64,000 nucleotides of DNA from assembly GCA_905178155.1 (NCBI GenBank), contig CAJINV010000001.1:15686142-15750141 (forward strand). Reading direction: 5' to 3'. Made by a program: the position numbers and the translations under genes. Below, piece after piece: positions 13,385 through 51,400 of the stretch. The stretch comes from Amoebophrya sp. A120 (Eukaryota > Protista > Dinoflagellata). The notes under the pieces are model-generated. The model saw only the letters and a list, made by a program, of their open reading frames with translations, was not told the DNA's origin and did not search any database. Each line of letters begins with the position of its first letter. Position 1 is the first letter of the stretch.

Positions 13385-16300
13385 CTACTCCTTCTTTCCC
13401 TCGTCCCGGTAGAACTTGGCTAAGTAGTTGTTTTATGCATTGCAAAAGTATCGCACTAGTATAAATCGCAATACAAATTTTTTCAGAAAAAAAATGGAAT
13501 TTGTAATGCTGATTTCGCTAAGACACAAGATTTGCCATGCGTGATTGCAATTAGTACGAGTACGATACTTTTGCATTGCATATGTTTTCTCTGGCGACCA
13601 TGTCTTTGCACTTGTAGTCCAGTACCAGTTCTCGCAGTAGCGTTCGAATCGCGATCGATACGTCTTCTTTGTCCCCAACCAAACTATCAAATGCAAAAAT
13701 GTCTGGGTCTGGAAAGTTGCCGGGTTTGTCATGCACATTTGCATGACCCAGGACGTCTGTAATGCATGGCCTAGCATCGCAGATTTTTAGAGGGCTTCCT
13801 GGACCTGATGTCTATTCCGCATGACAAGTGCCCTCCTCGCGTAGCACAAACTAGACTCCTCTTGCTGATCATGCAATACAGATTTTTTTAGAGTCCAAAG
13901 TTAGCATCACAAGCTCCAACCTTCCAGACCCAGACATTTTTACATTTGATACAACCCGGACGCTCGCAGTAGCTCTGCCAACACGTCGAAATCCGGCCCC
14001 CGATACGCGGCGCAAACCGCCGCAAGTGCGGCGGTTTCGTTCCCAACTAAAGAGCACGCCCAGACCGACGCAAACCGCTCGTGCACGACATCGCTGGTCG
14101 CGAATGAGGTAATATGCTCAGCGTTCTGTTTAGACGCTTTTGACGATGTTACTGCCGCTGCCAAAAAAACCTCCTTACTCGTAGTTACATCTGCACTAAC
14201 AGAATCGCTACCACCGCAACCGAAAAGTTCGGTGAGCTGATTCAGCGTCCGCTTGAATGTGGATTCGCGCTCGTCCACCGAAGGCGAAGCAGAAGCAGCG
14301 TTCTCGGCTGAGGCCGCGGCCTTCTTCGCTTTTTTCCTGGGGGTGCTGCTAGAACAAGATCCTTCACCATCTGGCTCGAACAGTTCCTCCAGCAACGTAT
14401 TGTTACTACCCACCACTTCCAGGTCGTCCAGCTCATTCGCGTCCCGTTGCCGCTTGTTCTGTTGGCTGTAGTTCAACATCAAAGCAGCACTGCCCGTTTT
14501 CGCGAGAAGCAGACTCTTCGGAGGCGCAACTGCGCGGTCTACCCCCTTCATCCGCGACCACGGTTCACCACTTTCATCAAACTGCTCCACCTGCTCTGTA
14601 AAAAAATCGGAATTCGCGGCCTGTTCCATCTTCTTCGCTGCTCCTTTGTAATCCTGGTACGCCGCGCCCTCCTTCGCCAACCGTGCCCCATAGGCCTTTT
14701 TGCAGAGGTCGAGAAACTGCGCTTTCTTTTTCTCGGCTGCCGCACGGACTTTCGCTACTTCCGCGTTGTGCGCCTCCACCACGCCGGGCGCCAGGCCCGG
14801 CAGGGGCTCAATCGGGTCCGGGAGCGGCACCACGTAGTTCGGGTCTTTTGGTTTTTTCATGTAGCCGCCCGCGTTCACGTGCGTCTTGCCGATGAACTTG
14901 AGGCGAAACAGGCACTCCACGCAGGTGTATCCCGTCGTGCCACACACCTCGTTCCGCACGCGCGCGCAAAAAGTTTCGAAATCCGGCGGGTTGTTCAATT
15001 CCTGGGCTATGGATCCCGATGTTTTCTTTTGGTTTTGCTTTCCCGACAAAATCACCGCCCGCAACGCCTCGCTCGTCAGCCTCTTGACGCTGCGTTTGTT
15101 CGTGACGGTGTCCGTCGAAGTGTACAGCTCGAGCAGCGTTTTTCCCGTGGGCTTGGTCTCGCCCGTGAGCTTGTTCGTTTTCGGCACCTGCATTCTTACG
15201 TCGAACTCGGTCTTGAAGTCCTCTAGCGTGGATGGAAATGTGAAGGGCTCCGCGGTCTTGCTGTGTTTTTCAAATCGGTTCACGTGCCGGCCCGAGGAGG
15301 CCGATTTCGGGAAGTGGTGTGGCGGTTTCAGCAACCAACAGATCGCGCAGAACTTCGAGGGCCGCATCACCATCACGGTCTTCAGCTCTTTGCGCGGGAT
15401 CGGCTGGAGAATGTAGTTGCTCACGATATCCCCAGAAAAAAACCCATGCCATCTTCCCACCCATCCATTTTTTGCATGAGATGAGACAATGTCTTCACTC
15501 GATTTGAAGATTGTTGTTTTGCAATGGCATCAAATTGAATGGGGATCATGGGTGTTTTTCCTGGATACGCGATGTCCGCATCGTATTGCTTCTTCCGCGC
15601 GTCGTAATCCTTCCACAGCTCCTGGATATACGGCTCGCACATTTTGTTGAAGAACCGGACCAACTGGCGGCGCAGATTCGCGCGGAAGCAGCTCGCGTCC
15701 AGTCCCGTTTTCGGAAACACCGTGGCGAGCACCAGAAGCAGGTACCAGTCGCGCTTGTCTTCCGGCAGTTCCGGCCGGGTGGGCACGTTTTTGCACACGC
15801 TCCACGCGTTCCCCAAGGGCTTGTCGCCCGCTTGGGTGATGCCGATCGCGGTCAGCACCAAACTGCGCAGCATGCTCGGGACCGAGTCGAACCGATTCGC
15901 GGGGGTGAGGGAAGCGACGTTCCGCAGGCGGTCGTGCAGGACCAGGGACAAGTCGAGCAAAATTTTCACCAGCACCCACTGCGCATTCTGAATCGTCAGC
16001 TCCCCACCGCCGCCGGTTTGCGTCGTCACGACGCGTTGCAGGGAGCTGGAGTTCTGGATCACCTTCGCGACCGCCATGCGCCACATCTGGACGTCGGGCT
16101 TGGCCGTCTCTTCGTCCCACGGGATGTAGGTTTGCTTCCTCATAAAAATCTCCTCGGCCTCACCGCCCTCCTGGACCGCGTAGCGCGCGAAAATGGGAAT
16201 CGGAATCACCGGCGCCGTGTTCTGCACGGGGCGGTAGCACAGGGTCGTCTTTGCGTGTTTCTCCCCACCGCCTTGCTGCTCGTTCAGGGCGATGTTCGCG

Positions 16301-19300
16301 GTGGCTTCCGGGATGGCAGCGATGTCGGAATACACATCTGCCTCGAACGTCAACATGCGGTTACTCACCCCACAAATGGCTGGAGAGATCGAGGTCGTAG
16401 GGGAAGCCGCCGCGGAGGTTGCTGCACCGGTAAAGGCACCGGAGCTAGTACCTTGGGTTTGGTTCTTTTGTCGCTGTAGTGGCTCCTGCTCAGAGCCAGC
16501 CGGGGAGATCGTCTTCATCTTGTTCTCCCTCTGTGCAATACGGTTTTCAACCGCTCGCAACAGCTTTGCGTCGGGTTTGGTGCGTAGAAAATCCTGGTTA
16601 GGGCCGCAGATCGCGAGCACTTGGTGCTCGAACGTCGTCTTGCTGTCCAAGGTATCGATGACCGCGTGCAAAATCGTTTGGCACACCTCTGGCTGGCTGT
16701 AGTAGTCGAAGAAGTCGTCTCTACTCATGTTCTTCAGCGTCGACAGGTTCGTCTTCGTAGTATCCGCCTTCTGCTGCGCGCGCGCACCGCGCTTGTTCTT
16801 GGCGGCCAGCTCGACGCATCCTACAGAAAAGCACACCCATAGATACCAGAAAAGGATGAGAATTTGTGTTGATGTTGCGGCTGCGGGTTTTAGTTTCACT
16901 GTATTAGTAGATTTGCGAGGTACTCAGCATGTGCATGATGAACTTTTTTCGTACCTACATCGCGAATTGCCAAAACCACGGTCACGACATGAATTTTTAT
17001 CAATATGGGTGTGTAAACTTGTTTTCTGCAGGATACCACGATCATTGCGTAGGTCGCGTTGTTCTTTCGCTTGCTGCTCAGGTCGAAAAATCGCGCCAGG
17101 TACACACACTTCCGCTTGATTTTCGCGCTCATCTGCTTCAGTTGCTGCGCAACGCGAACGGCCTCAAGGTCCCCGTTCTGCCAGGCGCGCGTCAAAGCGC
17201 TGATCGCAGGCGACGCTCGGTCGGTGTTCTCTTTCTGGGCGGTGGAGGCGGACTCGGTGGAAGGCACTGTTCGGATCGACATGGGCACATCTCCCTCAGC
17301 GGACGACGTTGCGGAAAGCAATGGCGCTGCGGCGCTGTCGCCACCACCTGAACTAGCAAGGGGTGTTTCATCTTCGGTTGTAAGAACGAGGGTTGCGTGC
17401 AGGGACAAAATCTCCGGCACGATCTGTTCGTTCCAGAGCGAGGCGAGCGATTTTCGGCATGATGATACTTGGCCTTCAAACGCAACCCACTCCAGGTGGC
17501 TCAAAAGACTTTTCAAATGCGGGCCCACAGTGCCCTCGAGCCGCTTGCCCAGTTCCTGCTCGAACGCGTTGTGCTTCCTCAACAGCAGTGCTTGCTCGCG
17601 CTGCTTCCGCAGCGTCGCAAGTTCTACTTCCCGCGGCGCAGAATGATCTTCAACTGGTTGTGGTTCATCCGTGGAGGGGGCCCCCGCAGATGTTGAAGTA
17701 GTTCCATTATTCGCAGTTCCTAGCTGGAGCTCCCCAATTCCCGCTGCCATGTCGTTGATCCGATTTTCTTCGTGGAACGCAGCTGTCAATTCCGCGAGTT
17801 TCGGCTTCATCTCCGTTTCCAAGCCCTGCAGGAGAAGCGGTTTGAACAAAGATTTGTCAACGAAGGCAGCCAGCTCGGAGAACGGAACGTAATCACCCGG
17901 AGGAATGAGAATCTTGCCCACGCAATCTACAAAGGGTCCGGCGGTGCTAGTCACAGAAGTACTCGCAGATCCGCGGGATGGTGGCGCAAAAGCAGCGGAC
18001 GATGTCCTAGTCGTTCCACAGAAGTCCCCCTCGTCCGAGAGAAGACCTCGAAAGGCCCAATCCCGCACATTTGAAAGCATCTTGGCCACTGTGATGTTGG
18101 TGCCGGTTGTGCCAGTGCCGTTTATATTATCTTCGTTCACGACCTCCGGTGATGTTGCGAACAATAGCTCTCCCGTTCCCAAGCCTATTTCTTCGCGCAC
18201 ACTCATTTTGGCCTGCCCGTCCGGTCGGCCGACAATGTGCAAGCGGTCCACCACGAACTCCACGGGCGCAAACGCCGGTGAGGTCGGGTCCGCGTCTCCG
18301 AAAATTTTCGTCGAAAATTGCTGCATTCGGGTGTCCGCATCTGCGGACGCGCACTGCCCGAGCGTCAGATGCGGATGGAAGTAGTCGGCGGTTCCTCTTT
18401 CCCCTGTTCGCGGTTGATCCGCGACGATTTTATCGGCACCGCAGTCCATCAGCGCTTGCTCGATTGCGTCTATCAGTTGGCTGAAAGAGCCTTGACTGCT
18501 GCAGCTCGGTGTGCCTTCCATCGGGTCGTCGAAGTCGGTGGTGTTCTCCTCGCCGCCTTTTGAGAGAGAGGACGACGTGGACTGCACCACGTACTCCGGC
18601 ACTAAATGTAGCGTTGCAGAGCCCTTTTGGCTGAACTTGCCGACCCGAGAAAACCGAATCTTGAACGGTGAAAGTTTTTTGCATGCAGCCTGCAGGCTTT
18701 TCAGAAGCGGGGACTCTTTCATCCCGTCTGTCGCGTCGTTTGCTTCGAACCCTTTTACAAAGGGGAACAAAAGGTTGACGTGCGGCATCCACTTGTGATA
18801 GGCCTTATCGTGGTCGCGACGGACGGCTTCGACCTTTGCATAGAAACTTGCCAGCTGGGGCTGCGCACCGGGCGGAATCAGGCACACGGCGGAGTGCCGC
18901 GACATCTCTTGCAGTTTCAAATTGGCTACAACCTTATTTTTCGATTGACTAGCTTTTGCTTTGTTGCTCAGGACCGAGCTCCCCTCCTTGCTATTTTTCC
19001 CTGATGCCGCCGGTCCGAAGTAGGTCACGCCCTCGGGCACGTGTTGGAAGACCTCGTCGATCAGCGTCGACCCGCAGCAGCTCGGCCCCTTGCGCAAGAC
19101 CCGCACCGCCGTCACCTGCGTCTCGTCGGCTTTGTTCACCACCACGGCCAGCACAACACACTTCTGTCCGAGGAGGAAGAATGGGTTCATGTCAATTTGC
19201 CCGATTGCCGCCTCGGCCGCGGCCTGGACATCGCCATTGGTCAGCTTCAAGTCTGCCCGGGTGTAGATCACGCAGAGGCAGTCCTCGAAAGCCCGCTTGG

Positions 19301-21972
19301 GTCCGTCCACGAAACTCATTGCTTCGTAGGGAATGCGGTTCGCGTCGTCGATTAGGAGCAAAGTAGGATTTTTCGTCGGGGACCATTTCGTAAGCGGCCC
19401 TTCCTCAATCTCCCCCATCATCAGCAAAACAGGTTGCTTCGAGTGCTTTGCGGCAGTCAACTGGCCGAGGAACGCTTTAGTAGTAGTATTCGAACTAGCA
19501 CCAGCAGAGGACGGCATTTTTCGAAACCCGTTGGCAAACTCGATAAAAATGGACACCTCCGTTAGTGATTTTTTTCCTTTGGCACTACCGGTGGAGGAGG
19601 TCTTCTGTTGTTCACCACCATGCTCTTCCGGATCGAAGAGTTGCGCCAGCGTCTTTGCAGCACCAACGGAGTTCGAAACCACAACCGGGCCAGGAACGTG
19701 CGCGAATGGATCTATTTTTACGTCCGCGTTCTGTTGATCTACTTTTCCCGTTGAGGTGGATATCCTGCTCCCAGCCGCCGGCGCTCCCTGCCTGTCCTGA
19801 GCTGTACCACTGGACGAGGCTCCTCCTGTGGCCGAATCACCATCGGCTTCTCCCGCTGCAGCTGCCCTACGTTCGATTTCGCGCAGGGACGGCGCGGTGG
19901 CGAAATACGCTTCTGCCGTCTCGAAGTAGTGTTTGTAGCATGCTGCGGACACCGGCGCAGACTTGTCGAGGCCGCGCGGGCAGTAGCCCTCCTGTGCAGT
20001 GTGAAGGTAAAATCTAAGTTTGTGGGTCCACTGTTCCTCATCCTGGCTTTCCCCCTCGTCAGACGCAGCTGGTTCTTCTTTATTTTCATCGGCCGCGTCA
20101 ATTTCATTTTCTTTCTCTGCGAACCGAGACTTGAGTCCGCTCAGAGACATCTTCAGCTTCTTTTTCTTCCGCATTTTTCCTTCAAACAGTAGCTGCCCGA
20201 GAGAAGTAGAGCCTCCGCCTGTGTTCCGCACAACCTGGAAACTTATCGCGCCATACGTGATACTTTCCCCAATCCGGTCGTTCATGGGTGCCGGGCAGTA
20301 ATAGCAGGTGTTCAACCCGTCGGAATCGACGTGCATCAGCATCACGATCGGGCGGTCACGACTCCACGCCTTCAGCTTTGTGCTCTGGTAGCCGGAAAAG
20401 AGCACGCAGCCGATTCCTTGTGACTCTTCCTCGGCACCGCAAGGGGGAAAAGGCAGACATTCCGGGCGGAACTCGAATTCGTGCACGAGCATCGGACACG
20501 TGGTCCCGCCCGGAACGTTCTCGCTGCCCAACTGGTCCCCACTCCCGAGAGCCAAGCTGCCGCTGAACCGCGTCCTCGAATAGGTTAGGTTCAAGCGCTT
20601 CTCGGAGCCAGCGAGACTCAAGTCGTAGTAGGTCGGCTTCTGCCGCGAATACACGACGAGGAACACTTATCAAAAGAAAAAAGCTCGTCACGATCACTCA
20701 TGGGCATGTTTGCAATACAAAATTGTCTGTCATGCGTAAAAATGCATCACAGCCACACTTCATAAGGGATTTCCCTAGTGTTTCTGCAATACAAGGCGAA
20801 GCTGTGATGCTAAAAAAATTTGTAATGCAAAACCTGCAACTTAGCGACTGTGACAAACTTTTTTCTCCCCATAACACTTTCCCGTCCTTCAACACAAAAT
20901 CTTCGCCGGGGTTCATGTATGGCGTTCTCAACTGTTACAACATTCACAACTGTTACATGAAATTTGTCACGCAAGAACAGCAACAGTGAAAGTGGCAATA
21001 TTCTTGCAGCTTTCGCATCACAGATTTTCCACAGATCATCATGCTGGTTAGCCCTTCGAAAATTTGTCATGCTAAGCACCTTGATCAAGTGGAGCGAGGC
21101 GGGTGGGAATTGTGCATCACAAATCCGTGTAACAGTTGAGAATGTAACAGTTGAGAACGCCATATCATGGGGCGGAGCATTGGGGTTTCCAGATCCACGG
21201 GAGGCTGGCAAGTCTTCAGCAAGGACTTCCCACTTTGCAAAACACCCGGTTTGGTTAAGTACTTCAGCGCCCGCTGGACCTTGTCATAGGCAGATTGCGT
21301 GTCGAAATTCAGGTCCGCAACCTGCTCAGCGAATTCCAGCCGCTGGGCGTACGTCTGGTAGCCGCAGTCGTGGAGAAGTGCAATGTTGCCGGACTTCGAC
21401 GTGCGCTCCTTCTGAAAAACAATTTCCCCAAAGGGTAGTGGTTGCGGACCGGTGCTGATGGCGTTATTCGCCTCTCCATTGCCATGTCTACTGTTGCTGT
21501 TCGTGGTCCCTTCTTGATGGCCTTGGTGTTGTGTCTGTCCAGGCGAGACGACACGAAAAATGAACACGTTCGAGCGGTATTTTTCTGCGATCTTTGTACT
21601 TGCCTCACCAGCGCTCAAGCCGCCAGCAACCGCAGCTTGCGCCTCCTCGTCGTGATCCGTGTTGCTGAGGTCGAGAACGCAGAAGAGAACCGCGGTCCCT
21701 TTTTTTCCCAGGTTATGCAAGTCGTTCCCACTGCTCCTACAAGTCATTGTTGTACCAGGCGAAGATATAGAAGCAGACGTATTTATTTTCAAGCCTAGCA
21801 CTTTCGAAGCGAAATACTCTTGAGTACAGAATACTAATTCCGCGTCGCGATTCCACGTATCGGTTCTGGCCGCCTCAATGGCCGATTTCAAAGTTGTGCT
21901 TCTTTTACCGTTCAGGGACTGGAGCCAAGAGGAGGGCACGCGCCCCCGCTCACTCGATTCCTGGGCACCCAT
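13385..21972 (-). CDS. Giant (~2442 aa) protein with internal 2H phosphoesterase (2'-5' RNA ligase-like) domain and C-terminal CxxC motifs; six non-canonical introns
   Basis: ORFs 21085-21972, 20698-20931, 16896-20666, 15421-16899, 13940-15460 and 13551-13736 join in frame when each TIR element plus one 5-bp TSD is removed. 8588-1259 = 7329 nt = 2443 codons ending in TAG at 13387-13385. 2H motifs: RHSAVCLIPP..WMPHVNLLFPF and FHPHLTLGQ. Confidence 0.8.
13434..13582. mobile_element. TIR element / non-canonical intron, family B
   Basis: TATGCATTGCAAAAGTATCGCACT...AGTACGATACTTTTGCATTGCATA; TSD TGTTT/TGTTT. Removal gives AREN-NYLAKF in frame. Confidence 0.9.
13685..13951. mobile_element. TIR element / non-canonical intron, family A
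   Basis: TATCAAATGCAAAAATGTCTGGGTCTGGAA...TTCCAGACCCAGACATTTTTACATTTGATA; TSD CAAAC/CAACC. Joins ASGL-VGDKE. Confidence 0.9.
15427..15567. mobile_element. TIR element / non-canonical intron, family D
   Basis: TATCCCCAGAAAAAAACCCATG...CATGGGTGTTTTTCCTGGATA; TSD CACGA/CGCGA. Joins DADIA-SNYIL. Confidence 0.85.
16817..17035. mobile_element. Degenerate TIR element / non-canonical intron, family D-like
   Basis: CATCCTACAGAAAAGCACACCCAT...ATGGGTGTGTAAACTTGTTTTCTGCAGGATA; TSD CGACG/CCACG. Joins AMIV-ELAAK. Confidence 0.75.
20668..20873. mobile_element. TIR element / non-canonical intron
   Basis: TATCAAAAGAAAAAAGCTCGTCAC...GTGACAAACTTTTTTCTCCCCATA; TSD ACACT/ACACT. Joins DGKV-FLVV. Confidence 0.9.
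20918..21164. mobile_element. TIR element / non-canonical intron
   Basis: Perfect 22-bp TIR TATGGCGTTCTCAACTGTTACA...TGTAACAGTTGAGAACGCCATA with a sub-terminal repeat of CAACTGTTACA; TSD TCATG/TCATG. Joins LRPM-NPGE. Confidence 0.92.
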
Positions 21973-23663: not shown

Positions 23664-23968
23664 TTGTTGGTCATGGAAATCGATCCCGCACACACGTAAC
23701 ACGATCGCCCCAAATGAAGCCTGTTCCATGATGAAAATGGCTGAAGGTTCTGACTCAAATCGACCCCGTGACATGCTGTTTCGTTCGGATTTTACCTAGA
23801 CCAGCCGTCCTTGGTAAAATCTTGAGCAAGGACCACGGTCCTGAGTAAAATCGTCAGCCAGGCTCTGTAGCTGGTGACGTGATCCTTCTCTCAAGTGATC
23901 CCAAGTAGCTCTCCAGATTGTCCGCGCTTTGGGCAGGTCTCCCGACCTATACCAAGCCCGGGTCAACA

Positions 23969-24090
23969 CTTTATCTGGGACCCCGTCCCCTGATCAAAAC
24001 TTTATCTGGGACCCCGTCCCCTGATCAAAACTTTATCCGGGTCCGCCGTCCTTGATAAAATCTTTACCAAGGCCCGAGGTCCTGAATAAA
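23969..24090 (+). repeat. ~31-bp tandem repeat (2 identical + 2 degenerate units)
   Basis: CTTTATCTGGGACCCCGTCCCCTGATCAAAA at 23969 and 24000, degenerate copies at about 24031 and 24062, related degenerate units at about 23790-23850. Confidence 0.8.
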
Positions 24091-24724: not shown

Positions 24725-27700
24725 TTACAGGTGAAGAGGAATCTTCCACACGTTCTCGATGACCGGAAACGCACTTCCCTCACCCGGACCGCCTTCAGAA
24801 TTGTACGCGAACATGATCTGGTGAAGCAAAATTTCGTTCCATTTGTCTTTCCAGCGTTTTGCTTTGGCCGGATCCATTCGTCGTTCCTGAAGTTGCAACG
24901 CCACATGCAGGGTGAAGTCCCGCTCTAGTTCGGTAGCATCATTGAGCTTCATGTGCGAGGTCGTAATTCTCTCGGCCAAACCTTCTCGAACAGCGGCATC
25001 TAACTCGTAAGTCGCAAACTTCAGCACGCGGCGAGCCGACTCCGAATCCTCTGCCCCGTGATCAGCAACAGGCTGCGTGTTAGTTTCAAAAAAAGCTACG
25101 AACTCGCCGAACAGCTGCGCGATATCGGCCCCACTGAGGTCCCGACGCAACGTTAGTGGCTTGCACTTTTGCTGCTCTAGGGCTACTTCTCCCGAGGCAC
25201 TTCCCGAAGTATTCCCCGCGCCCGTGTTTGCAGTCGTCACGGACGCACGTCGGAGCCCCATGGAATCAAAAAGAAAATAACTCACGCTCCCCTCGGTGTC
25301 ACGTTCTGCCCCGATGGTGAAGGAGTGCGAGAAGACGTCTAAACACACCTCGTGCAAAGGGTCACAGTACAAGTTTTCACGGTGCGAAGATTTTGCGGCG
25401 GGAGCCAGAAACTTTACCTGCACCGCAAAAGCGGATAGAACTCTAGCTCCAGAAGGCCACTCTTCTTGTTTCGCCCGTGAAGAAGGCCGCGATGAAGTAG
25501 ACCCTGCAATTTGAAGGGGTTTTTCACCTCGGTCCGGTACGATTTCCGATTCCACCAGCTTTGCATTTGCTATCCTCCGGGTCGTGCGCTCTCGCAGCAG
25601 TAGGAGTTCTGACACAAAGTCAGGAACCGCTACTGGCTGCAGCACTGTGTCCGTGAACGACCTCCCCCCCGTCAGAACCCAGGAGGCCAGGGCTGCGCCG
25701 ACGTTGGCGGAAAACCGAAAATTGTGGCTGATGTCGGCGATAAACGAGTCGTAGCGAACAGCTGCCTCGTTAACCACCAGTTCCTCCAGTTTCTCTGGGT
25801 CGATTCGCATTTCTGCAAGCGAAGCGTCCGGCTTGAGCATGACGTTTTGATGCAGTCTGGCTTCTCCGTTTGTGACCTCCACCAGAGCCCCTGCACTGGG
25901 CACAGTTCCGTGGGCGACAGTGACTACAGGTGCAGGAACCGCTGGAGCGGGACCGCCCCCACGCTTGTTACCTTCTTGAGCACCCCACACAGTACTAGCG
26001 TTCTCCGTTTCAGTTGTTGTTGAAATGGACTTCACCAATGCCAGGTCGTACCAGGTCATTTCGGCCTCGTTCCGCTCTGCTCCCTCCTGCGAATACGTCA
26101 ACTCTTCAATGTCGGTGTAGAACCCGAAATTGCTTGCTAGAAAGTAAAACGCGTAGTCGGGCCGAGGGAAAATTGTCTGCTCCTTCGCGGCTTTTTCCCC
26201 GCCAGCAAACGCCTCCGTCGTCTGGTATTTGAACAGCTTCTCTGAGTACACGTTTTCGGTTATCAGCTCCGCGCGGAGATATGCATTGCAAACATGTCTG
26301 GATCTGGAGGAATGCGTATGCCTATGCGCCGGCCAACACCAGGTCACAAAAAATAAACCTGTCTGTGACTATGCAAAAGCTCCTGTTCACTTTTTGTTAA
26401 GATCACAAAGAATAAGAAAGAACGACCATCAATGTATAGCATCGATTTCCAAGAGCAGCACTCCTGAACTAGTCTACCAGTGGGGCATTGATATGATTGT
26501 CAGAGGACAGCTGCACGACAAAAACGTGCATTGTCGATGTCGTTGTCCCTTTGACCACGGCGACATATTTGCGTTTGTGTTTGATAGGAGAAATGCACTT
26601 GCGATGGTCGGCGTGGAAGTACTTGGCGCGACCACCTGCTGGCTTAGCGCAGACCCTTTTTTGAACAGACACTCTGTCCACAGCTTGTAGACCTGCTCGC
26701 GCCATTGCGTTTCGGAAATCACTTTTCTATTTGTATTTTCATCCAGACCGACATTATCTACGTATTCTACGTCATGTCTGGGATGAAACGGCCTTCCATG
26801 CGACTCAAACCACCAAGGGAAGGACCGCAAAAGGGTGCGAAAGGGGTTCTGCGTTACGGGGCCAGCTGTTGCTGTGGTCTGACTTTTCTGCTGTAGCTGC
26901 TCTAACCGCAAATCGTTTTGAACGACGGATCGGAAAAACCGCAGGATGTTGGCTTTCGGAAAGACAGCTTGCCAGAACCTATAGAAAAAATCCTTCGGAT
27001 AGTAGGCAGCCATTTGCAGTCCGGCGAGACCGCGCGTAGGTGTGCTGGTAGAGGCTCCGCCTGCCCGTCGTGAAGACGCCAAAAGCGGCTGCACGGCTTC
27101 CGCTGCCCGGGCCCCCAGAAACGTTTTCCGTGCCTCCGCAGTCCTCTCTGGAAATTCCACTAGCCTGCCGCTTCGCAAGTCGTACCAGTAAGGGAGCGCC
27201 GGTACCTCGTAGTCATTAGAGTAAAACGGGCCATTGTCGTTCGCGAACTTCTTCGGGTAGCAATGGCCGCCACAAAAATGTGTCTCAACCTCGGCTGCCA
27301 CTCCGATGGGCACGCGAGGAAAGGAGCATGAAGAGATGCCAGTTGTTGACAACGGTGGTGCTATTGACAGCGTCGAGGAGTCATCTTCCATGTTCGTCGT
27401 GTAGGGTCTGCTGACTGCGTCTCTCGCAAAATGATCCACCACGTGGTGCGAATATAGGTCCACATGCCCCTCGTCAAGAGCGTCTTCTACTTCTCTTCCG
27501 CTTGTGGTCCTCGTTCCACAGTTGTCTTGTGCACTTCCCAAATACCCAAACTGTCTGATTGCACTTTTGTACACGTTGCCACTTTTCTCGTCGGTTTTCA
27601 CGAATGGGTGATCCAAAGCGCGTGCAAGCGGGGATCTAGGCAGTAGGGGTCCTCCAAAACCAAAAAAACTTCCTTGACCCTCCGGTCCCGTGCCGGCAAG

Positions 27701-28114
27701 CCCGACCAGACACACGATAGACATCGTTGCGGTGGTGCATAGAGCACACCTGCTCACTCGCTCGCAAATCGGCCAACGATCTGGATCTGATGATGTTGTA
27801 GTGCCACTTCTACTGCCCCTGCCGGCCGGTTGTACGGGAACCAGCAATCTGCCCAGCTGAAGCTGTCGGTGACTTCGCCTGTCTTGACCTTGAGCCATGT
27901 TGCCGCTGCCAGTGTACGTGTAGCGGTTCATCTCGTCGTGTATTTCGGGCTCTGAAGTAGAGGCTGGGGCATACCATCCCTTGTCGTGGTCATCTTGCGC
28001 CGCTCCCGTCGCCACAGGAGACGTCAACTTCGTTGCGTTGACGAATAAAGCGCCACCTGTGCAACCACTGTAGAGGTGATCGCAGCATAGCACGGCTGCT
28101 CCCAGAATACCCAC
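24725..28114 (-). CDS. Hypothetical ~1000-aa protein with N-terminal hydrophobic segments; one non-canonical intron; start uncertain
   Basis: ORFs 26474-28114 and 24725-26347 join in frame (ASAFL-RAELI) on removal of element 26280-26586 plus one TSD. Confidence 0.65.
26280..26586. mobile_element. Degenerate TIR element / non-canonical intron, family A-related ends
   Basis: TATGCATTGCAAACATGTC...GACATATTTGCGTTTGTGTTTGATA; TSD GGAGA/GGAGA. Removal restores the frame. Confidence 0.75.
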
Positions 28115-29357
28115 TTTTGCAAAATGATGTGGCCCTCCGCGCCGTTCCCGTGATGTGCAATGTGCTTCTTGCCGTCTTCGTACCCGCTCCCTACGGGCCG
28201 TACGGGAGTGGCACTATAACGGACACCATCTTCCTTCATTTTTGTAGACGGTCAGCTGCTGCCGAGTTTCTTTTAAAATCAATTGGAAGTAGCGCAGCCG
28301 AAATGTACAAATACACTTGACTTGCAAGAGAAAAAAACAATTCAGAGGAGCATGGCGTCTGCCACAACAAACTGTGACGGAACGCCCAAAAACTTTTCTT
28401 CGAACCTATTGACAGAAACACGACGTGGAATCAAGACTGGAGATCATGGCATTGACTGTTTCAATGCCATATTGTCGCTTGTCACGAGCTGTCATTGAGA
28501 TGAGTGGTCACTTCCCCTCGCATTGAGCGTGTGGGTTTCAAGATCACATGATCCTTAATCATACCATGATCGACGCCTGTAATTGTACCTCTCCTGCGAT
28601 ATCGAATCAATAAATGAGATCTTGATGTTGATCTTCCTCCACTTTATGTTCCTTTCAGTGTCCTCTAGAAGCTGAAGCACCCAAGAACTAAGTACTTGAT
28701 ATGACCACACGATAAACATAAAGACCACATCCGACTGATTTACTTGTTCTATCGACATGCACATGCTCGCACTAGCAACAGCAAGCACCAGAGCTCTTGC
28801 TTCAAATAGATTCGTAGAAGATCAGGCGTTGGTAGTTGCTTAAGATCGGTTTACTCGCTAGGACCGAAAGCGAAACCAGAACGAAGGTGGATGACAATAA
28901 AAGTCCTCCAATCGCGATTCCGACCAGCAGGAGTAGTGTAGCTGTTTCTCTTCCTTAATAGCGGGAAGGCTGCAGCGCTTCATTTTGACAGTCGCATGTT
29001 GATCAACATCAAGCTGCACAGGCAACTCAGTACAGCAGGCAAATATGTCCCAAAAAAAACAGTCCAGCGTCGACATCAATGTAGTTTTCTGATGCTGTTG
29101 AAGCCCATTCTGCTCCGTTTCCTTCTCCTTTCGCTTCATCAAGTACAAGAACTCAAACTTTTTACATAGCACTAGGCTGTCGCTGTTGCGCTTTTTCGAA
29201 ATAAAAAACACCAAGGAGGAGTAGCGTTCGTTGTCGTTCTTCTCGCGAGAACTCAGATCAACTGCAACAAAAGCATCAACCACAGCTACGACTGCTATTT
29301 CAAAAAATCGTGAGGTTTCAGTTCCCAAATCGTCATCATCTTCATCTCGCTGGCCTG

Positions 29358-36500: not shown

Positions 36501-38842
36501 AACGAAGTTCTTGTTCGCGTCACACCGCGCGATCCGCACTTCCTGCCGACTGCCACTTTCGTATCGGCCGTACACGTCGTAGTAGTCCGTGCCGCAGACC
36601 ACGCGGTAGCAAGACGCGGCGATCCGGTTGTTCGCGAACAGCGACACTTGCGTACTGGTGATGGTGCCGAGAGTATCACAGGAAAAAAGTGTTACAGTTA
36701 CACATTTGATGCAATTACAGCATCACAAAGTTGGTCCGCATAGCAAAGAAAACTTGTGATGCGCAGACTCTAAGGGAAAACACCTATGAAATGGGGCTGG
36801 GAAGCATTTCCTGCATGACAGAGGTTGTCTGTCTTGCTGGTCTTGCATCTGAGTGTGTAACTGTAACACTTTTTTCTCACGATAGAGAGTGTTGAAGCAC
36901 TTGCTGTCCGAAGTCCCGGCGTTGAACATCAGATTCTGCAGATACGCGTTGGTCAACGCACAGTCCCCGGTATTCGCTGAGTACGCGTACCGACGCGGGC
37001 AGTGGTCCAGCATGCCAAAGCTCCCGCCTTTCTGCGCGTTGTTCGCCCAGTATTGAAACTCGGTCGGCAGCGTTTGCCCCGTGCCGCTGTCCTCCAAGGC
37101 GCAAAAGCCGAGCTGGCGCCCCCGTCTATGCGGAGCGCAGCCCGTGTCGGTGGGCACCGTGCAATAGAAGTTCCGATCCACCGCTACAGCGGAATCTGAC
37201 ACGCACTCGTCGGTCACGAAAGCGCAACCGCGTTTGTAGCCCCAGTGCAGGTTTTCAATCGCGATGGTCGCGCGACTGTAGTCCGCCTGGTACCACCCCG
37301 TGTCTTCCGCGAAGGCCAGGGAAATCGTGGAAACGAACGTCGCGTCGTCCGGATTCCCGGTTGCCGCAAACATCTCGTTGCTGTGTATCCGCTGCTCCCA
37401 GTGGTTCCCGTAGGCAGAGCAGCGACTGGTTGGCGTGTTCTCCAGTGGCATGCCGGTGAGAGAGGGGCAGTTGAAATATTCCCTCGCTTTCTCCACCACC
37501 TTCGGGGTGCGGATCTCGTACTGGCAGTGCGGGTGGTCGGTCAGGCAGTTCTGGAAATTCGCCCCGTTGTACTGTTGCTGCAATGCCTTGGAGCCGTAGG
37601 GGCACGTGCACTGGTTTAGCTTGAAATTCCCGTGCTCAACAATACCGAGAACTTGGCCCGCGGAACCGTCCTCATGCAGGCCGGGGTACCTGCGTGAAGT
37701 ACTTGACAAAAATCTTCATGTTTCAGCTGTGGTTACCACAAAGCGTCGTTAACAAAAAAATTTTCCACCTTCTGAGCGAAAAAGACCGACTTTCATCCAG
37801 TCCTATTTTCGAAGTTTGCACCTTGCTAGCTACTTAGTACGTCTAGTAGAAGAGAACAATGATGTTGAAGCGCCGGATTCCATATAAAGTACCCCATATA
37901 AAGTACCATCGTCTCCCCGTGTTGTAGGGTAGGTTCCACCTTCCGTAGCAGTCGAACGCATAGTAGCTTCGGTCTTGCAGCTTCAGCGTGCCGTCGTCGT
38001 TCACGAAGTTTGGCCAAAGCAACTCGAAAAAAAACAGCACGTGCCCGATCTCGTGCACGACGTTGGCATAATTGAAGTGCAAGTTTCGCTCGACGTTCAA
38101 GTCGCCGTAGCCGCTGTTCGTGCACAGAGTGACCGACCCGGCGATCGGCCGCCCGCACTGGTCGACGTAGCAGGAGGCGGCCGCGGCGAGCGTGTTCCCC
38201 GTACAGAGATACTCGTCGTCAATGTCGATGAAGAGGTACAAATCGATGTTGTCGACGAGGAAGTTCCTCGGCGTCGAACTCGCATCCAACGTGCTGGTCT
38301 CGTACCCGCAGGCGCGGAAAGCGCTATCGCGGTCCAAAGGGGTGCTTTGCGAGTACCGACGGGTCTTCAGCGCGCGCGACCAGAACGCGAGCGAGTTTTT
38401 CATAAGCGTGGTCTCCAGGTGGTTGGTCCAGCTTGCGGGAGCGTTGCCGCGGCCGTAGGAGACGATTTCGTACCTGAAGATGCATCAGGAAAAGACATAA
38501 AAAGCAAAAGGCATGAAGCAAAGCTACGTGCTTCATGAAACAAAAAACAAAAACTGCTTCAATTGTCATTGTTTCAACGTCAACTATATCGTTATCTTAC
38601 CCTATCCTTATCGGCCCCCAGCTCGAGCCAGTATGTAGCTGAGGACAGGTAGGCGCTGTCGTCGACGCGAGAGATCTGCCATGGTAGTGCACAGGCAACG
38701 GCTCCTCCATGACGCGCGGTGCTGTCGCAGTTACGAGTGTAACAGAACGTTCCAGACACAACACGCCGCACCAGAAAAAAATGCAAGCAATCAATAACCG
38801 TTCCAAGCGTTGCGGGAACGTGGCCAAGACGAAAGACTCCAT
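33508..38842 (-). CDS. Leishmanolysin/GP63-like zinc metalloprotease (M8) with Cys-rich repeats, Thr-rich stalk and C-terminal hydrophobic (GPI-like) tail
   Basis: PIRI, LAAAASC..DQCGRPIAG, HEIGHVL (HExxH), AREYFNC, HWEQR, NEMF, ISLAFAEDTGWY, WGYKRGCAF, DHCP. Exons join through two GT-AG introns and three TIR introns (36674-36884, 35998-36258, 35473-35653). Confidence 0.88.
35473..35653. mobile_element. TIR element / non-canonical intron, family B (opposite orientation to 13434 and 42395)
   Basis: TATCCAGTGCAAAAGTATCGCACT...AGTACGATAGTTTTGCAAAATGCATA; eroded TSD TGAGT/TGGAT. Joins PYFD-(I/T)QTCW. Confidence 0.82.
35998..36258. mobile_element. TIR element / non-canonical intron, family A
   Basis: TATCAAATGCAAATATGTCTGAGTCTGGAAG...CTTCCAGACCCAGACATATTTCCACTTGATA; TSD TGGCA/TGGCA. 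Joins PTYC-QHFFP. Confidence 0.92.
36674..36884. mobile_element. TIR element / non-canonical intron
   Basis: TATCACAGGAAAAAAGTGTTACAGTTACAC...GTGTAACTGTAACACTTTTTTCTCACGATA; TSD GAGAG/GAGAG. Joins CFNTL-GTITS. Confidence 0.92.
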
Positions 38843-40497: not shown

Positions 40498-44257
<3,760 letters not shown>

Positions 44258-45447
44258 TTTTGCCACTGCGCTTTCCGGTCAGTACTGCCAGAAAACCAAA
44301 ACGTGTCCAACAACTCCGAGTGAGTGATGTTTGTTATTGTTGGTACGATAGTTGTAAAATAAGCCGGGTCTGAAAATTAATTGACCGGAAAAAAAAAAAA
44401 AACTTGTGCGGCGAAGGAGGAAGTTTTTTAATGTCGTGCTTGTACTTCTCGTAGTTGTAAGTGTACGGTATGCTTTGCAGCCATTGGAAACGAATGGACT
44501 ACGTTTTAGTCTTCGAAAGAAGACTGCTACTAGTACTTCGTCAAAATATGTCAAAACTATCCTCCGAAGTATCTGTCAAGATCGTGTCACCAATGTTACA
44601 ATGTAGAGATCTTCGCTCTTCCAAGGACAAAGTGGAGATCCGATGCCGATCACAGAAGATAAAGTTGTCAAAAATGTAGTTTTTACACCATAGGCATAGA
44701 ATTTGCGTTTTTTCTTTTCCCCAGCGCATTTGCGTCTTCTTCTTCTAGTAGTTGAAATGAGAACGCGATCGCTTTTTGAAAATGACGTCCTTTTTGCGTT
44801 GGATGATCCTTCACGCCGTTGATCTCTTGTGTAATATGCTCCCGAGGATACAATAGTTTAGAAGAGAAAAAGGTGGCTGAGAACTTACTATGAGCTGCCG
44901 CAAATGAGTGTGATTCTCTTTGACCATTCTTCGACGAGTCGTGATAGTTGCAACTTCTCTGCTTTGAAAGAAAGTTCCACCGCGGAGGACTGGGATTGAA
45001 CCCTGTCGCTGTTATGCAGGACCAGGAACTGGAACCAGCATACGAATAAATGCATGCTTTCCTGTCGGATGCGATTTCCATGGTCGGGAAGATGATACTA
45101 GCCGAGCGATTTGATGACTTACCAAAAACCTTGGCTGCCAACGACGAGATCATGTTACAGTAGGAGGACGAGGAACCACAACGCAGACTTGGAGAAGAGA
45201 AAAAACATTACTGTGACTCGCAACCGAACAGAACTGTGATGTACGTGCTGGCGCACAAGTGAACGCATCCTGATCATGGAGATCGACGTAGATAGTCGCT
45301 GTTTACGTTCGGCCCTGTTTCTACTACAAGATCCCTAACACCACAAACATTGCTAGCGACGAGAGGAGCTGCTGAATGTGCTTGTTCATGTTCTTGCCAT
45401 GTTCTTGAGGCTCTACTTACTCTACTTAGAGTTCAAGTCCTAGTACC

Positions 45448-48400
45448 TCACAACGAAAATTTCGAATCCCTTATTTGTTCAGCACTCAGGGCAAGGTCTC
45501 CCACGTAGTACAAGTCTTCTAGCTCCTCATCCGATAGCCCCATTAGTTCTGTCTCGTGACACAAATGCTGCGACGACGGCCAGGCGCGCTCGCGCCCCCG
45601 GGGACTGAGCATGTTTTCAAATGCAAATGTGTCTGGGTCTGGAGGAAACTTGTAATGCTGCCTTGGGACTAGTGAATGCTTTGTAATGCCCAGCCAAGCA
45701 TGAGAAATGTCTGCGCTTCGTTGTGTTGCGTTTTTCGCATGACAGCCTGCGTTATTGCATGACAGACAAAAGGGCCTCTTCTTGGACACGCATCACAAAC
45801 TTTTTGGTCATCCCAGACAAGCATGACAAGTCTCGCAATCCACCAGACCCAGACATTTTTGCATTTGATACACGTACTCCTCGCACAACCGAAAAAGGTC
45901 GTCCACGTGCTCGAAGTCTTTCGCGTATTCCTCCTGCACAATGACAACGGAAAGCCAGCCAAAGTACACGAGTTTGTACCCAAAAGCATTTCCCAGCAGT
46001 TGCAGCCCCCGTGCGGACGCGGAGTAGGCCTTGTGGTGGCCATGTTCCCTTTCGTACACTTCCGAGTGTTTTTGTTGGGCATTTGTCACCGCGGTTCTCG
46101 TATCCAGGAAAAAACACCCATCCCCATCCATATTTTGCATGACAAACACGGCAACTGATGCATGTTTTGCATGACAAATTGGATGTGGATGGGTGTTTTT
46201 TCCTGGATATCTCGTCGGCCTCTCGTACTTGGGGATCAGGCTGAGACCGATCGGGTATCAAAAGGAAAAATCCCCCCTCCCCCTGTCGAAATGCAAATCT
46301 GTGATGCGGGATTTGTCTACACAAATCGGCTTTGTCTTGCAGTAGAGGACTGCAGGCAGATACAGAGCCTGAGTAGGGGCGTTTTGGTGTAGGCGCCTCG
46401 CAAGGCGGGCACTTCCTCTGTAGGCCATCCAGCATTACAAATTGCCTGCAGAACGCAGCGGGGTTTTTCGATTTGCATTCTTGCAATGCAAAGACGATTT
46501 GTGGTCACAAACCAGCATCACAAATTTAAATTTTCACAACTGTCCCGTGTTGGTACTTATGGGGAGGGGGGATTTTTCCTCACAATATCGGAACTCGGTA
46601 GCGGTCAGGATAGAAGTAGCCGTTACTGGTTTGGATCAGCAGTACCCGGGGTTGAAACCATTTCGCCAGGAGTAACCTTCGAAGCACGTGCCAGTCGTAG
46701 CCGTCGATGTGTAAGGAGAACAGCTCAAACTTTGTCGGGACGGATTTTGACTTCAAAAGGTCCAAAATGTTCTCCGGCGTCACCTTGGCTGCGCTGTAGT
46801 CAATGCGGCTCAGGGATCCTATCATGTCAATCATCCGCCCGTCCCAGTTTTCAAACGCCTGCAAATAGCGCGTCTGGTAGTCGCCGGCCAGGCGGCCGAT
46901 GCCAATATCGACGAAAAATTTCGCGTAGGGTGAGGGAGAAGCTGAAGTGGAGCGGGACAAGGCATTTATTTTCTCGCAATTGAAAATGGAAGGATAGAAG
47001 TGTGGTTGCGGCTGAGCAGGGGAGTGATTTGGTCCAGCGCCTTGGCCTGACTTGATGTTACTCATCCGACCCGTCCTTTTTTCCTCGTCCTTCTCTTGTT
47101 GCAAATAGATAGTCCGGTAGACATTGACCAACACAGAGTCGAGCGCGTCCAGACTGTATCGACAGTCCGGCAGCGGAATGGATATCATTTGCAAAAACGT
47201 CCCCACCCCAGAGTCAAGATGGGGATTTTGCAACACAAACCTGAAAGTTTTGGGAGCCACGCATGACATCAAGTGGCAGGCTGTAGTGTAATGCAGTTTA
47301 GCAAGGGACGCCGCAGAAAAAATCCATCTCCTTATCCTGTTTACAGCATTACAACTTCCAAAACACGATAGGAAATGCTTCTCATGGGGATGCGCATTAC
47401 AAATGCTCTTGTGCTTGCAGATCTGCATGACAACTCTGGGGTGGGGATGTTTTTGCACAGGATAATGGAGTAGGCGTCGTCCGCCCACAGGTCGATTTCC
47501 AATTTGGATGTAGTCGTGCCCTTGTGTCGTGTCCTCTCGGGACTTACTTTCGAAGACCCTTGCAGTGCCGACGCGAGATGCCCGTCAGGAGTAGAGCAAT
47601 TTGCCTCTGTTGCAAGCAATTTCTGTGCGGTTTCCACACTGCGGATGCGGTTCTGTAGGCACGACGCGTAGGACTTGAAAACGAAGCGGTTTAGACTCGT
47701 TTCGCGTGCGATCGCGCGTTTCAGCGCCTCCTTTCCGAGTAAGTGGACGAAGTGAAACTTCTTGCCGAACAAGTGCAGCGCCCTCACACCGAGGGCGAGG
47801 TACACGAGCAACGCGTCCAACTGGCTAAACAGAGATCGCCGTTTCTCGAACACATTCGTGATCGCGGTCAGAACTTTTTCGACCAGGAGCGCAGCTCCTG
47901 AAGCAGGAAGATGAAGACCTCCGTTCGACGGTGTTGATGTGGCAGGGATTGGGACACCAACGGGAAGAAACAGGTCAAGCGAAAGTTGTGCAACCGACAG
48001 AATCCACTGTAGATAGGAATTTCTTGCAACCCACAGAAAGCGCCGGTGTCTGTGGTGCCCGTCGGCAGCCTCAATGGTGTGCGTCGGCGCCTCTCCCCGC
48101 TTCCCCAGGAGGCGCCGCACGGCCGCTGGCGGCTCGACTAGAGGAAATGTGTGCGACCAGGTAGTCACTTCGACGTCCTTGTTCTCCTCGTGTGCCGCAG
48201 ATAATTCAATATTGCCGATGTTGTCGTCCATTCCGCAATGCAGTCGTGTGTTCAGGTCTGTCGTGTATTTCATCGAGTGCGGGTCTCCTGGTGCGGATAG
48301 AATCGACGACTCCGCCTTCCGCAGCGCGCCGCCGTCTCGGTTGTGGTAAGGAAGGACCAAGCTGCCGGGAAAATCGCAGATGTGGCGCACGCCGTTCAGC

Positions 48401-51400
48401 CCGTGCTCCGTCACATTCTGCATACGCTCGATGAGAAAATGCTTCTCCGACGGGCCGCGGGCGAGGAACTCTAACCTGGATGCACGTCACGAAACTGTTG
48501 TGGGCGTCCACAACTTTTGGAAAAACAAAAAGTGAGAATGACCATCACGGATAAAACAACTAAACTACATTATAAGAATCGCTCTAAATCTAAGTGGAAA
48601 ATCAAAATCAGTGCAAAAGATGGACAAAGAGCTACAATTGTGTTTCGAAGCAGCCGAACCTAAACAAGTGTATGAAGTCTCAGTGATGTTGTTCTTGTTG
48701 AAAGAAGCAAATTATACCGTATTTCAATACCGAAGTATTTGGTCCCGAACGTGAACTGTCATGGCATTTAGGCGGGTGTAGTAGAGACTCAGGCCACGAT
48801 TCAGAGCCGTGGGGATTTCCGGCGTCACGGAAAGTTGTCTTTCTTTCGACCTTTGCCAACTTCGATTGCCGAGCGAAAAGCGCCACAAATCCCACAAACT
48901 ACTGGCGAATCCGAATCTCCCTTGGCCGTAAAGCTTCTTCAACTTTTCTTCGACGAGCAAGTGGGCCTCCTCCGTCTCTGTGTGGTCCAAAAATCCAAAC
49001 GTTTTCCAAATCACTGCGATGTCTGCGGGCTCTAAAAAAGTTCGTTTCACTTCGTCAATCAGCAAAAGCCCAAGGAGAAAGCGGAAAAGCGGCTCAACCA
49101 GGAAGAGCTGATGGCTTACTTCTCCATCTGTTCGCTTTCCTTTCACTTTTTCCCAGGTATTCCTCGTGGTCGTGGCGGAGAAACCGGACAAAGTTGAGGA
49201 CTCTTGGTCTTTATCTGCGTTCACAGCTGTCACGTCACGCAAACACAAGCGACGGACCATCAGCTCGTGGTGCACGTCTTCTGGCTCGGTGTTAGGCCTA
49301 GAAGAAACCTCATCGAAAAAATCGAGCGTCTCCGAAATCACGAAGCTCTTGACCAGAAAAATCAGCGAACGCAGGTCGGAAACTCGTACGCTACTGAAGT
49401 TGATATTATTACCGCGTGAAGCTGTTTCGGTAGTTTCCGTAGCCGTACCCGTACTGCTTGGTGCGGTGTTCGCGAATTCGATAGCGGACGACATTATATT
49501 CCCACCAGATGATAACATTTCGTCGTCGTCTACCTTCGACGCTAAAGGACCGGTCCGCCCCTGCTGCAATGCCACTATTTCTTGGTCGGGAACAAAACTA
49601 TCAGCGGCAAACGCCGAATTGCGGCGCTGGTTCTCCTGCGTCCGAACCGTTCTCTTCGGAGAGCGTTTGCGGCCACCCCAGTGACTGTGACGGGCGCACT
49701 GACTCTCTCGACACGGGGTGTCATAGGCGTCTTGTTTTCCGCGGTCGCCCTCGTGGTCCGTCGAACTGGGACGGGGGACCACAAGCGGCCCTGATTTTGA
49801 TTGTGAGGACTGCGTGCTGCTTCTGGTGTTTCCATCCCTATCCCCAAACTCCCAATCCCGAATGGCTGTGAACAATGCTCCTTCTGTGCCAATGTCGTGC
49901 TCATCAATCGCGTTCAGCAGTTCCTCGCTCAGGCGGGCACTGCGTAGCTTCCGACAAAACGAGTCCTGCCCAGAAGAGTTGTTCCGCCGGCCGTGTGTTG
50001 TTGATACTCCTGCACCGGGTGCAGAGGCGACAGCGTCCACAACAGAAGTTGATGTCGGGCTAGCTGCAGCTTCTGTGCCTGCGTTTATTCGTATTTCCCC
50101 TTTGCTCATCTTCAAGAGCTTGCGCAATTCCTGCACTTTGGCAGCTGCGCGTGTCGACGCAAAGAGTTGTACCGTCGAGAAATTGTCCACCTCCTTGTTC
50201 AGATCGTCCCCCGCCCTGATTTCGGCTTCGGCAAGCGTCTTTGCGAATGTCCGCGCGTCTTCCAGCTCTTGCGGATCGAGCAAATGCGCAACGCTTTGGA
50301 TTGCCCGCAAAACCTCCGTCTGGTGCTCCGGCGCGTACCCCAGCACGGACAGAGTTCCGATCACAAAAGCGACAACCAAGATCGCGACGCACACGTACTG
50401 ATGGAACGCCAGTGCGCGGCTGCGTCCTCGTGTGCAGCACACACACCGTTCCACTTTCCGACAGGTATCAAATGCAAAAGTGTCTGGGTCTGGAAGAGTG
50501 CAACTTGTTATGCTCAATCTGACGCAAGCAAGAATCTGTGTTGCATGATTACCAAAAGTCGTCCAGTTAGTTTTGACCAAGTCGGGAGGGAATTTCTCGT
50601 GCAGGATAGTCATGAGAGAGATCGCACAGAATCTGTCATGCTAGGTCCTGCATTCCAGGCCTCATGGGTCATGGAAAAGCTGCATGACAAATCGCGCACT
50701 CTTCCAGACCCAGACATTTTTGCATTTGATAACAGGCCTTTCGGCACCACCGCATCTTCCTGCTGTCAGGACTGTACCAGGGCACCTGCGTATCATAAAG
50801 AAAAACTCCCCCTCCCCATATTGAAAACGCATCCGTCTGAAAATTTGTGATGCACATTTGTGACCTCAAATCTTGTCTGTCTTGCAAGAAGGCAAGTCCA
50901 GAGAGCCCCCTGCATTTTGCAGGCGGTTTGTGATGCTGTTGGGCTTAGGGCATACACGCTTGTCATGCTAGGCGCCTACGTCAAAACCTCTCGACCGAGG
51001 CTTGACATATGCCTGCAGTCCTCTACTGCAAGACAAATCTGATTCGTGTACGGAAATCCAGCATCAGAAACTTCGTTTCGATATGGGGAGGGAGAATTTT
51101 TCCTTTTGATACTGCGGCTCCGCCCGGGCCTCTTCCAACCGCCGTCGCTCGCGGTCCTGCTGCAGAGCCTGCTGCTGGTCTTCGGGAACGGACCCTGGTC
51201 CTGGTTCGGGAGGTACAACCCCGAACGGAACCGGGTTGGGCGGCATTCTGATGTAGGTCTTCTCCGCAGAGGAGGCTGCAGATTGTTGTAATACCGGAGA
51301 AGCAGATCGCTTGCGCGGGAACGGAACTCCAGTCAGCCCGCCTCCAGATGGTGCCTGAGGCCGCAACAGCTCCTGCCTTTGGTCGCGGGCGGAGGGGCTC

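Follow-up and report, generated by a model that had tools for sequence, protein, structure and literature searches.

The 64,000-nucleotide (nt) stretch of the Amoebophrya sp. A120 genome analysed here, hereafter the window, contains seventeen introner elements of 109-332 nt, distributed over five genes on the minus strand. Gene G1 (13385-21972) encodes, once six elements are removed, a protein of ~2,440 amino acids (aa) in which Pfam detects a 2H-phosphoesterase (2'-5' RNA ligase superfamily) domain. Gene G2 (24725-28213), whose start was not mapped, becomes a 1,058-codon open frame without Pfam match after removal of one element. An M8 (leishmanolysin-family) metalloprotease gene (33508-38764, 5' end approximate) holds three elements, and the gene for a 662-aa DEAD-box helicase (40498-44257; DEAD and Helicase_C domains by Pfam) combines eight GT-AG introns with a single element. 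Gene G5 (45448-51417; 1,372 aa, no Pfam match) carries six elements and one GT-AG intron (48476-48730), which joins frames of 679 and 721 codons into one gene and hence brings the count, including the DEAD-box gene, to five. Exons of G1 and G5 are 100% matches to proteins named Amoebophrya sp. A120 (P0001 and P0005), as is the DEAD-box exon to the 662-aa protein P0015. The nine ordinary GT-AG introns mapped in these genes, all preceded by an exonic G and seven of them starting with GTA, agree with an earlier note on this DNA in so far as it had the normal spliceosome running beside the system that removes the elements.

A strict scan, requiring ends of the form TAT[CG]..[CG]ATA plus an exact 5-nt flanking repeat, returned 11 elements in the window, against 0-3 in the Markov controls (40, locally matched). 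These 11 served to derive an end profile, which added six with imperfect repeats (13685, 15427, 16817, 35473, 45615 and 46256, each named by its first position), and all the elements of the earlier note, with the same range of lengths, were thereby located again. When the TAT motif was dropped and any repeat with inverted ends was sought, the window (20) could not be told apart from 20 controls (8-22), and this generic scan, being no better than controls, proves nothing by itself. The 5-bp direct repeat that the note had ascribed to the elements is exact in 11 of the 17, with one mismatch in five and two in another (35473), and the three elements in which it had seen single-base deviations at the ends are the same as here (16817, 45615 and 46256).

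In G1, the elements lie at 13434-13582 (exact 5-nt repeat; 12 codons ahead of the stop, homologue P0002 gapless), 13685-13951 (repeat 4/5; the sole element able to slide to GT-AG), 15427-15567 (repeat 4/5; kept in the annotated P0001, absent from P0002, informative on the cut register), 16817-17035 (degenerate; repeat 4/5, sense 3' end deviating, crossed by P0001 and P0002 at +5), 20668-20873 (exact repeat; a 97% copy at the related locus L024) and 20918-21164 (exact repeat; terminal inverted repeat 22/22). The element of G2, at 26280-26586, is degenerate with an exact repeat. The M8 gene presents instances at 35473-35653 (repeat 3/5; register-informative), 35998-36258 and 36674-36884 (both with exact repeats), the last within the Pfam M8 stretch of homologue P0007, and the DEAD-box core is interrupted at 42395-42534 (exact repeat), directly ahead of the QT-FSAT motif. 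In G5 they occupy 45615-45870 (repeat 4/5; sense 3' end deviating, register-informative), 46101-46209 (the shortest; exact repeat, terminal inverted repeat 29/30), 46256-46587 (the longest; repeat 4/5, an inverted relative of 50791), 47183-47464 (exact repeat), 50466-50731 (exact repeat; orientation opposite to 13685 and 35998) and 50791-51111 (exact repeat). Families are shared within the window, with 13685, 35998, 45615 and 50466 belonging to a single one. Sense-strand folds of the elements are much stabler than those of shuffled sequences (z -2.4 to -27, 12 shuffles each), with ungapped terminal arms of 14-39 nt in 14 elements and gapped stems in the remaining three, and predict that the arms would pair in the transcript.

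Removing each element together with 5 further nt (element+5) generates open frames of 2462, 1058, 1179, 679 and 721 codons, spanning 6, 1, 3, 4 and 2 elements, and these frames stay broken when 0, 3, 4 or 6 extra nt are removed instead. The DEAD-box junction at 42395 likewise reads correctly at +5 only, restoring a spacing of 28 residues that is the mode in 61 of 81 homologues. The claim that deleting an element plus one repeat copy restores the frame, including in the DEAD-box core and the M8 gene, was hence borne out, with fusion obtained at +5 only. Of the 11 elements spanned by proteins P0001, P0005 and P0015, whose sequences are the same as in the window, 10 are crossed at exactly element+5. 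Since the A120 gene models are reported to have been built from transcript alignments (PMC7789003), these crossings constitute indirect transcript evidence. Furthermore, none of the three M8 elements causes a gap in the alignments of M8 homologues, taken from A25 and a transcript assembly, and P0002 runs gapless across 15427, 13685 and 13434. Protein support, from an own record or a gapless homologue, is thus available for 16 of the 17 junctions, and for 26280 the support is frame fusion only. The own records also cross 16817, 45615 and 46256 exactly despite their mismatched repeats, which indicates that identity of the two repeat copies is not required; with no need to compare the copies, distance from the element ends is the simpler rule.

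A search of a metagenome collection with a 28-letter end motif yielded at least 131 related loci, and the 80 listed among them have a common record prefix. The 130 loci analysed (452,791 nt), chosen by the end of one family and hence no random genome sample, contain 13 of the 17 window elements as nearly complete copies, at most 97% identical, and nothing else of the window. A caller that ignores the repeat, and that recovers 12 of the 17 window elements with one false call, identified 348 elements in these loci, of which 262 present an exact 5-nt repeat, 55 one mismatch and 31 more than one; an exact repeat of 4 nt was seen in a single case and one of 6 nt in none. When the reading frame was assigned independently to the two sides of each element, continuity required that one copy of the repeat stay in 70 of 88 cases (after exclusion of 241 unclear ones and 19 with poor repeats); a second frame-calling put this number at 162 of 187, with 142 edge, ambiguous, weak or closed cases set aside. 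Junctions fall in open frames in 271 of 290 cases, against 4350 of 6717 average positions, in a lenient test that one-base shifts also pass in 234 and 238.

Members of four families in the related loci lie either way round with respect to the transcript (35 versus 30), and the strand calls of neighbours there agree in 95 of 96 pairs. The end consensus, TAT-S-N4-G-N-AAA, is kept equally at the 5' and 3' ends. An asymmetry in the conservation of the two ends, to which the window pointed with both of its triplet changes (2/2) at the 3' end, was rejected, with 147 related elements giving 4 versus 2. Target sites show no clear base preference in these loci and, unlike those of GT-AG introns, follow no exonic-G rule. 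Of 162 duplications, 79 begin at the third codon position, an arrangement symmetric about the second base of the codon, against 42 and 41 at the other two positions; this bias does not separate cut registers. Two family copies, at L022 3862-4492 and L065 765-1461, have grown to 631 and 697 nt by foreign inserts, which suggests that introners offer other DNA a safe place to insert.

Sliding within the repeat gives GT-AG in one of the 17 window elements and in 8 of the 162 related cases, and the U2-type combination of a GT or GC donor with an AG acceptor is available in the same numbers. The assertion, made in the earlier note for the cases it examined, that sliding gives no GT-AG holds for 16 of 17 elements here and 154 of 162 in the related loci; 13685 is an exception that it missed. 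A suitable homologue allowed GT-AG alternatives to be scored for 11 elements: the best pair within ~20 nt that keeps the frame fell below +5 in eight, was lacking in two and tied in one. The possibility that nearby GT-AG sites are used instead, which the earlier note had named as evidence that would overturn its proposal, is hence disfavoured at 10 of 11 elements. These results bear on the alternative that the elements are retained, are removed via nearby GT-AG sites or lie in dead genes, an explanation for which 13685, able to use GT-AG unchanged, and 15427, kept in P0001, can be adduced. Given the +5 crossings of the own records (10 of 11 elements), the inferiority or absence of GT-AG pairs for as many, and the return of the conserved DEAD-box spacing of 28 residues, this alternative is largely refuted already, and we assign it a minimal probability. 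The P0001 gene model ends ~490 residues earlier than the spliced frame and P0002. It appears truncated at the retained element, by an annotation miss or as a poorly spliced copy. The element+5 rule can be used for repairing gene models in the A120 genome.

Repeat mismatches change an amino acid at three sites (15427, 35473 and 45615), and the homologues fit only if the upstream copy is kept. In particular, the residue of the upstream copy is found in both homologues at 35473, in the A25 homologue as well as the annotated A120 protein at 45615, and in P0002 at 15427. The mismatches at 13685, 16817 and 46256 are silent. Taken together, the three that change an amino acid are compatible only with cleavage 0-1 nt ahead of TAT on the 5' side and 4-5 nt past ATA on the 3' side; judging from these sequence comparisons, these are the likely cut positions. 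A 3' cut 1 nt after ATA, yielding a UA-N acceptor as in Fritillaria, was considered and is contradicted at all three informative sites (3/3). The NT-/-AN motifs of a published table (Table S4) were set aside as support for the 1-nt register, because sliding of the aligner towards GT/AT and AG/AC would give the same pattern.

Removal of element+5 very probably occurs at the RNA level. In favour of precise excision from DNA, programmed or stage-specific and leaving a transcribed copy without elements, are the strand-symmetric ends, the insertion in both orientations and the lack of an RNA-pairing signature, all of which a DNA-acting enzyme would predict. The symmetry of the ends is, however, already explained by transposon origin, and the elements are present in the assembled genome and have been counted as RNA-seq junctions against it in the account of PMC7789003. 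The repeat copy kept is also the transcript-upstream one at 3/3 sites, which is a weak argument because all window genes lie on one strand. We consider excision from DNA very unlikely. Of the earlier proposal of precise removal "at the RNA (or DNA) level", the excision of an element plus one repeat copy is therefore upheld by frames and proteins, whereas the DNA level is disfavoured.

The mechanism that we propose begins with insertion, in which a transposase or integrase provided in trans would make a 5-nt staggered cut in DNA. On the pre-mRNA, the paired TAT-N5-G-N-AAA ends would be recognised, and distance would be measured from the element ends without reading the repeat. A dedicated end-measuring pathway would then cleave at two points, one lying 0-1 nt ahead of the 5' TAT and the other 4-5 nt beyond the 3' ATA, and ligate the exons; as has been suggested for the nonconventional introns of euglenids, cleavage and ligation may proceed with no lariat formed. 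A removal pathway separate from the spliceosome is favoured because there are no fixed terminal bases and no exonic G, because the ends are symmetric and because the spacer geometry resembles that of Euglena; we rate its probability as close to, though below, an even chance.

The other explanation to be weighed is a rewired U2-type spliceosome, which would use a 5' site N/N-U-A-U-S (the slash marking the cut) one base before TAT, a paired-end-binding protein in place of U1 and a 3' site located by how far it lies from the hairpin. Cleavage 1 nt before TAT would give +2 U and +3 A, as in 7 of the 9 canonical donors here, and hence fits the spliceosome too; 6 of 8 GT-AG-capable related cases also fit this register, where ~3 would be expected by chance on a rough estimate from base frequencies. 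Yet the supported register shows no conserved base at -1/-2, no G excess at +1 (19/70) and no exonic G, and the UA-N-acceptor register, 4 nt upstream, is contradicted at 3/3 informative sites. The same inverted-repeat and direct-repeat layout is reported for 15% of canonical A120 introns (PMC7789003), but the ends are fully symmetric, occur in both orientations and sit in long terminal stems that would hide both splice sites. As for the machinery, A120 is described as retaining 83 of 89 spliceosomal proteins together with U2, U4, U5 and U6, a nearly complete spliceosome in which U1 snRNA was undetected (PMC7789003), and tunicates set a precedent with a divergent U2AF and snRNA modification, as presented in PMC13326754; in A120, by contrast, U2AF65 and U2AF35 are each entered as single (Table S6). 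We view this explanation as plausible, at somewhat less than an even chance.

Besides the donor-like bases and the spliceosome retained by A120, several results weigh against the end-measuring pathway. Two spliced elements have an altered 3' ATA, and one element is very degenerate. The register derives from three sites, and its 0-1 nt limit from 15427 alone, where the homologue is 54% identical; a register test independent of outgroups, based on coding likelihood, GC direction and stops, gave no signal from 34 mismatches in the related loci. The exception among the 11 spanned elements is also 15427, which P0001 reads through, stopping just behind it. Selection on a transcript hairpin should furthermore favour G-U over A-C arm mismatches on the sense strand, and the 20 versus 6 observed in 13 window elements was not replicated in 184 related elements, which gave 168 versus 169 and no excess. 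Finally, neither a transposase nor a candidate nuclease was found in the window or the 130 related loci; the available text of PMC7789003 also reports that no A120 transposase was found.

The elements are short (median 262 nt), bounded by terminal inverted repeats (TIRs), flanked by a target-site duplication (TSD) of fixed length and multi-copy, like miniature inverted-repeat transposable elements (MITEs). Of the earlier description of MITE-like elements removed by a structure-guided system, the former part stands, while the null result of the G-U/A-C comparison (168 versus 169) leaves structure guidance unsupported. A motif, GCAT-N-ACA on either strand, is present in 14 of the 17 window elements and in 361 of 369 related-locus calls, at 13.6 per kb in elements versus 1.65 in flanks, and is common to unrelated element families. 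As a required splice signal it was ruled out because 16817, which lacks it, is nonetheless removed, as its crossing by P0001 attests; on its distribution, GCAT-N-ACA is more likely a candidate binding site of the mobiliser. The longest element among the 130 loci, at L053 476-2934 (2,459 nt), has TAT/ATA ends and an exact 5-nt repeat and resembles a family copy split by an insert of 2.2 kb that contains a 415-codon frame. Considered as a possible mobiliser, it gave no support for this role, its frame having no Pfam match.

Elsewhere in the window, an intergenic fold-back of ~1.08 kb (61377-62455) has nested arms of 91 nt at 98%, 132 nt at 93% and 129 nt at 79% identity, with an inner TAT...ATA pair (61543-62286) that lacks a 5-nt repeat and carries the GCAT-N-ACA motif. 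An M18 aminopeptidase gene (29358-30977) is free of introns and elements, and the intergenic segment 23086-24090 contains GC-rich short repeats and a 31-nt tandem unit near 23960-24060. An Rfam scan of the window gave 0 matches. All mapped genes in positions 1-64000 lie on the minus strand, in agreement with the co-oriented clusters reported for Amoebophrya.

The seventeen elements are Amoebophrya A120 introner elements, inverted-repeat inserts with a 5-nt duplication, a class already known in this strain since 2021 (PMC7789003) and catalogued again in 2025 (PMC12130899). Farhat et al. 2021 (PMC7789003) describe 29,850 copies in A120, with inverted repeats of 8-20 nt or more that begin with TAT, seven variable bases and at least three A, direct repeats 3-5 nt long (Fig. 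S19 giving one of 5 bp), a mean non-canonical intron of 240 nt and RNA-seq-supported junctions. The window elements come from the same strain, as the 100% protein matches attest, and share the TIR of TAT, 7 nt and AAA, the direct repeats at the borders, the organisation in families, the size (~240-260 nt), the hairpin, the borders other than GT-AG and, like the introners of that account, the absence from A25 orthologues. On removal from mRNA, what the window offers is indirect, namely the proteins identical to it that cross 10 of 11 elements at +5. The inverted-repeat introners in non-canonical introns that the earlier note had mentioned as reported in Amoebophrya genomes correspond to this class in this very strain. 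The account of Farhat et al., as far as its available text goes, leaves border position and mechanism open, with repeats of 3-5 nt, whereas the elements here, the same in kind, have a fixed 5-nt duplication and a cut placed by inference 0-1 nt before TAT. Gozashti et al. 2025 (PMC12130899) list 58 A120 families, mostly non-autonomous TIR DNA elements of 100-350 nt, many with non-canonical ends, and the window elements, too, are short TIR DNA elements with such ends. Their automated duplication lengths range from 2 to 5 (21 of 58 A120 rows), in contrast to the fixed 5 here, and their family 38 bears retro-like ORFs, whereas the window elements have no such frames (0/17). In the literature searched, which was mostly without subscription journals, no paper resolving Amoebophrya introner excision was found. 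What the present analysis adds is the fixed 5-nt duplication, the indifference to repeat sequence and to the direction of insertion, and a probable place of cutting, which cDNA would show directly at three named sites.

Beyond Amoebophrya, the MITE introners of Aureococcus and Micromonas also combine TIR and TSD and achieve sequence-neutral intron gain by removing one TSD copy, but are described as carrying or co-opting canonical splice sites, of which the A120 elements need none (PMC7789003, PMC9860276). The non-canonical introns of Fritillaria borealis are likewise MITE-derived, with TIR and TSD, and escape GT-AG; they are reported to have a dominant AG-AN, a modified U2 spliceosome and a duplicated U2AF, whereas A120 has no fixed terminal dinucleotide (PMC11282704, PMC13326754).

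Euglenid nonconventional introns share with the A120 elements borders other than GT-AG, paired ends, TSD-like repeats, the presence of GT-AG introns alongside and asymmetric spacers round a triplet (PMC12501133, PMC11282704). As presented by Nomura et al. 2025 (PMC12501133), the genetically defined Euglena code consists of a paired triplet, CDG/CH'G, with a short 5' spacer (3 nt) and a longer 3' one (5-6 nt), and the exon begins with a purine; the window elements do not carry this signature, their ends being TAT/ATA, with spacers inferred at 0-1 and 4-5 nt and no flanking rule. The two lineages are unrelated, and excised circles have been shown in Euglena, while the likeness of A120 is read from sequence. 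A120 may possess a second mRNA excision machine, independent of the spliceosome, one that would read paired TAT/ATA ends with a fixed ruler, in either orientation and at any target, that would have arisen independently of the one in Euglena and that would make exons safe landing sites; we advance this as a tentative proposal, somewhat short of an even chance. Should the spliceosome not be responsible, A120 would offer a new, programmable means of taking a hairpin-marked insert out of mRNA without leaving a scar, and the Euglena geometry would have originated twice.

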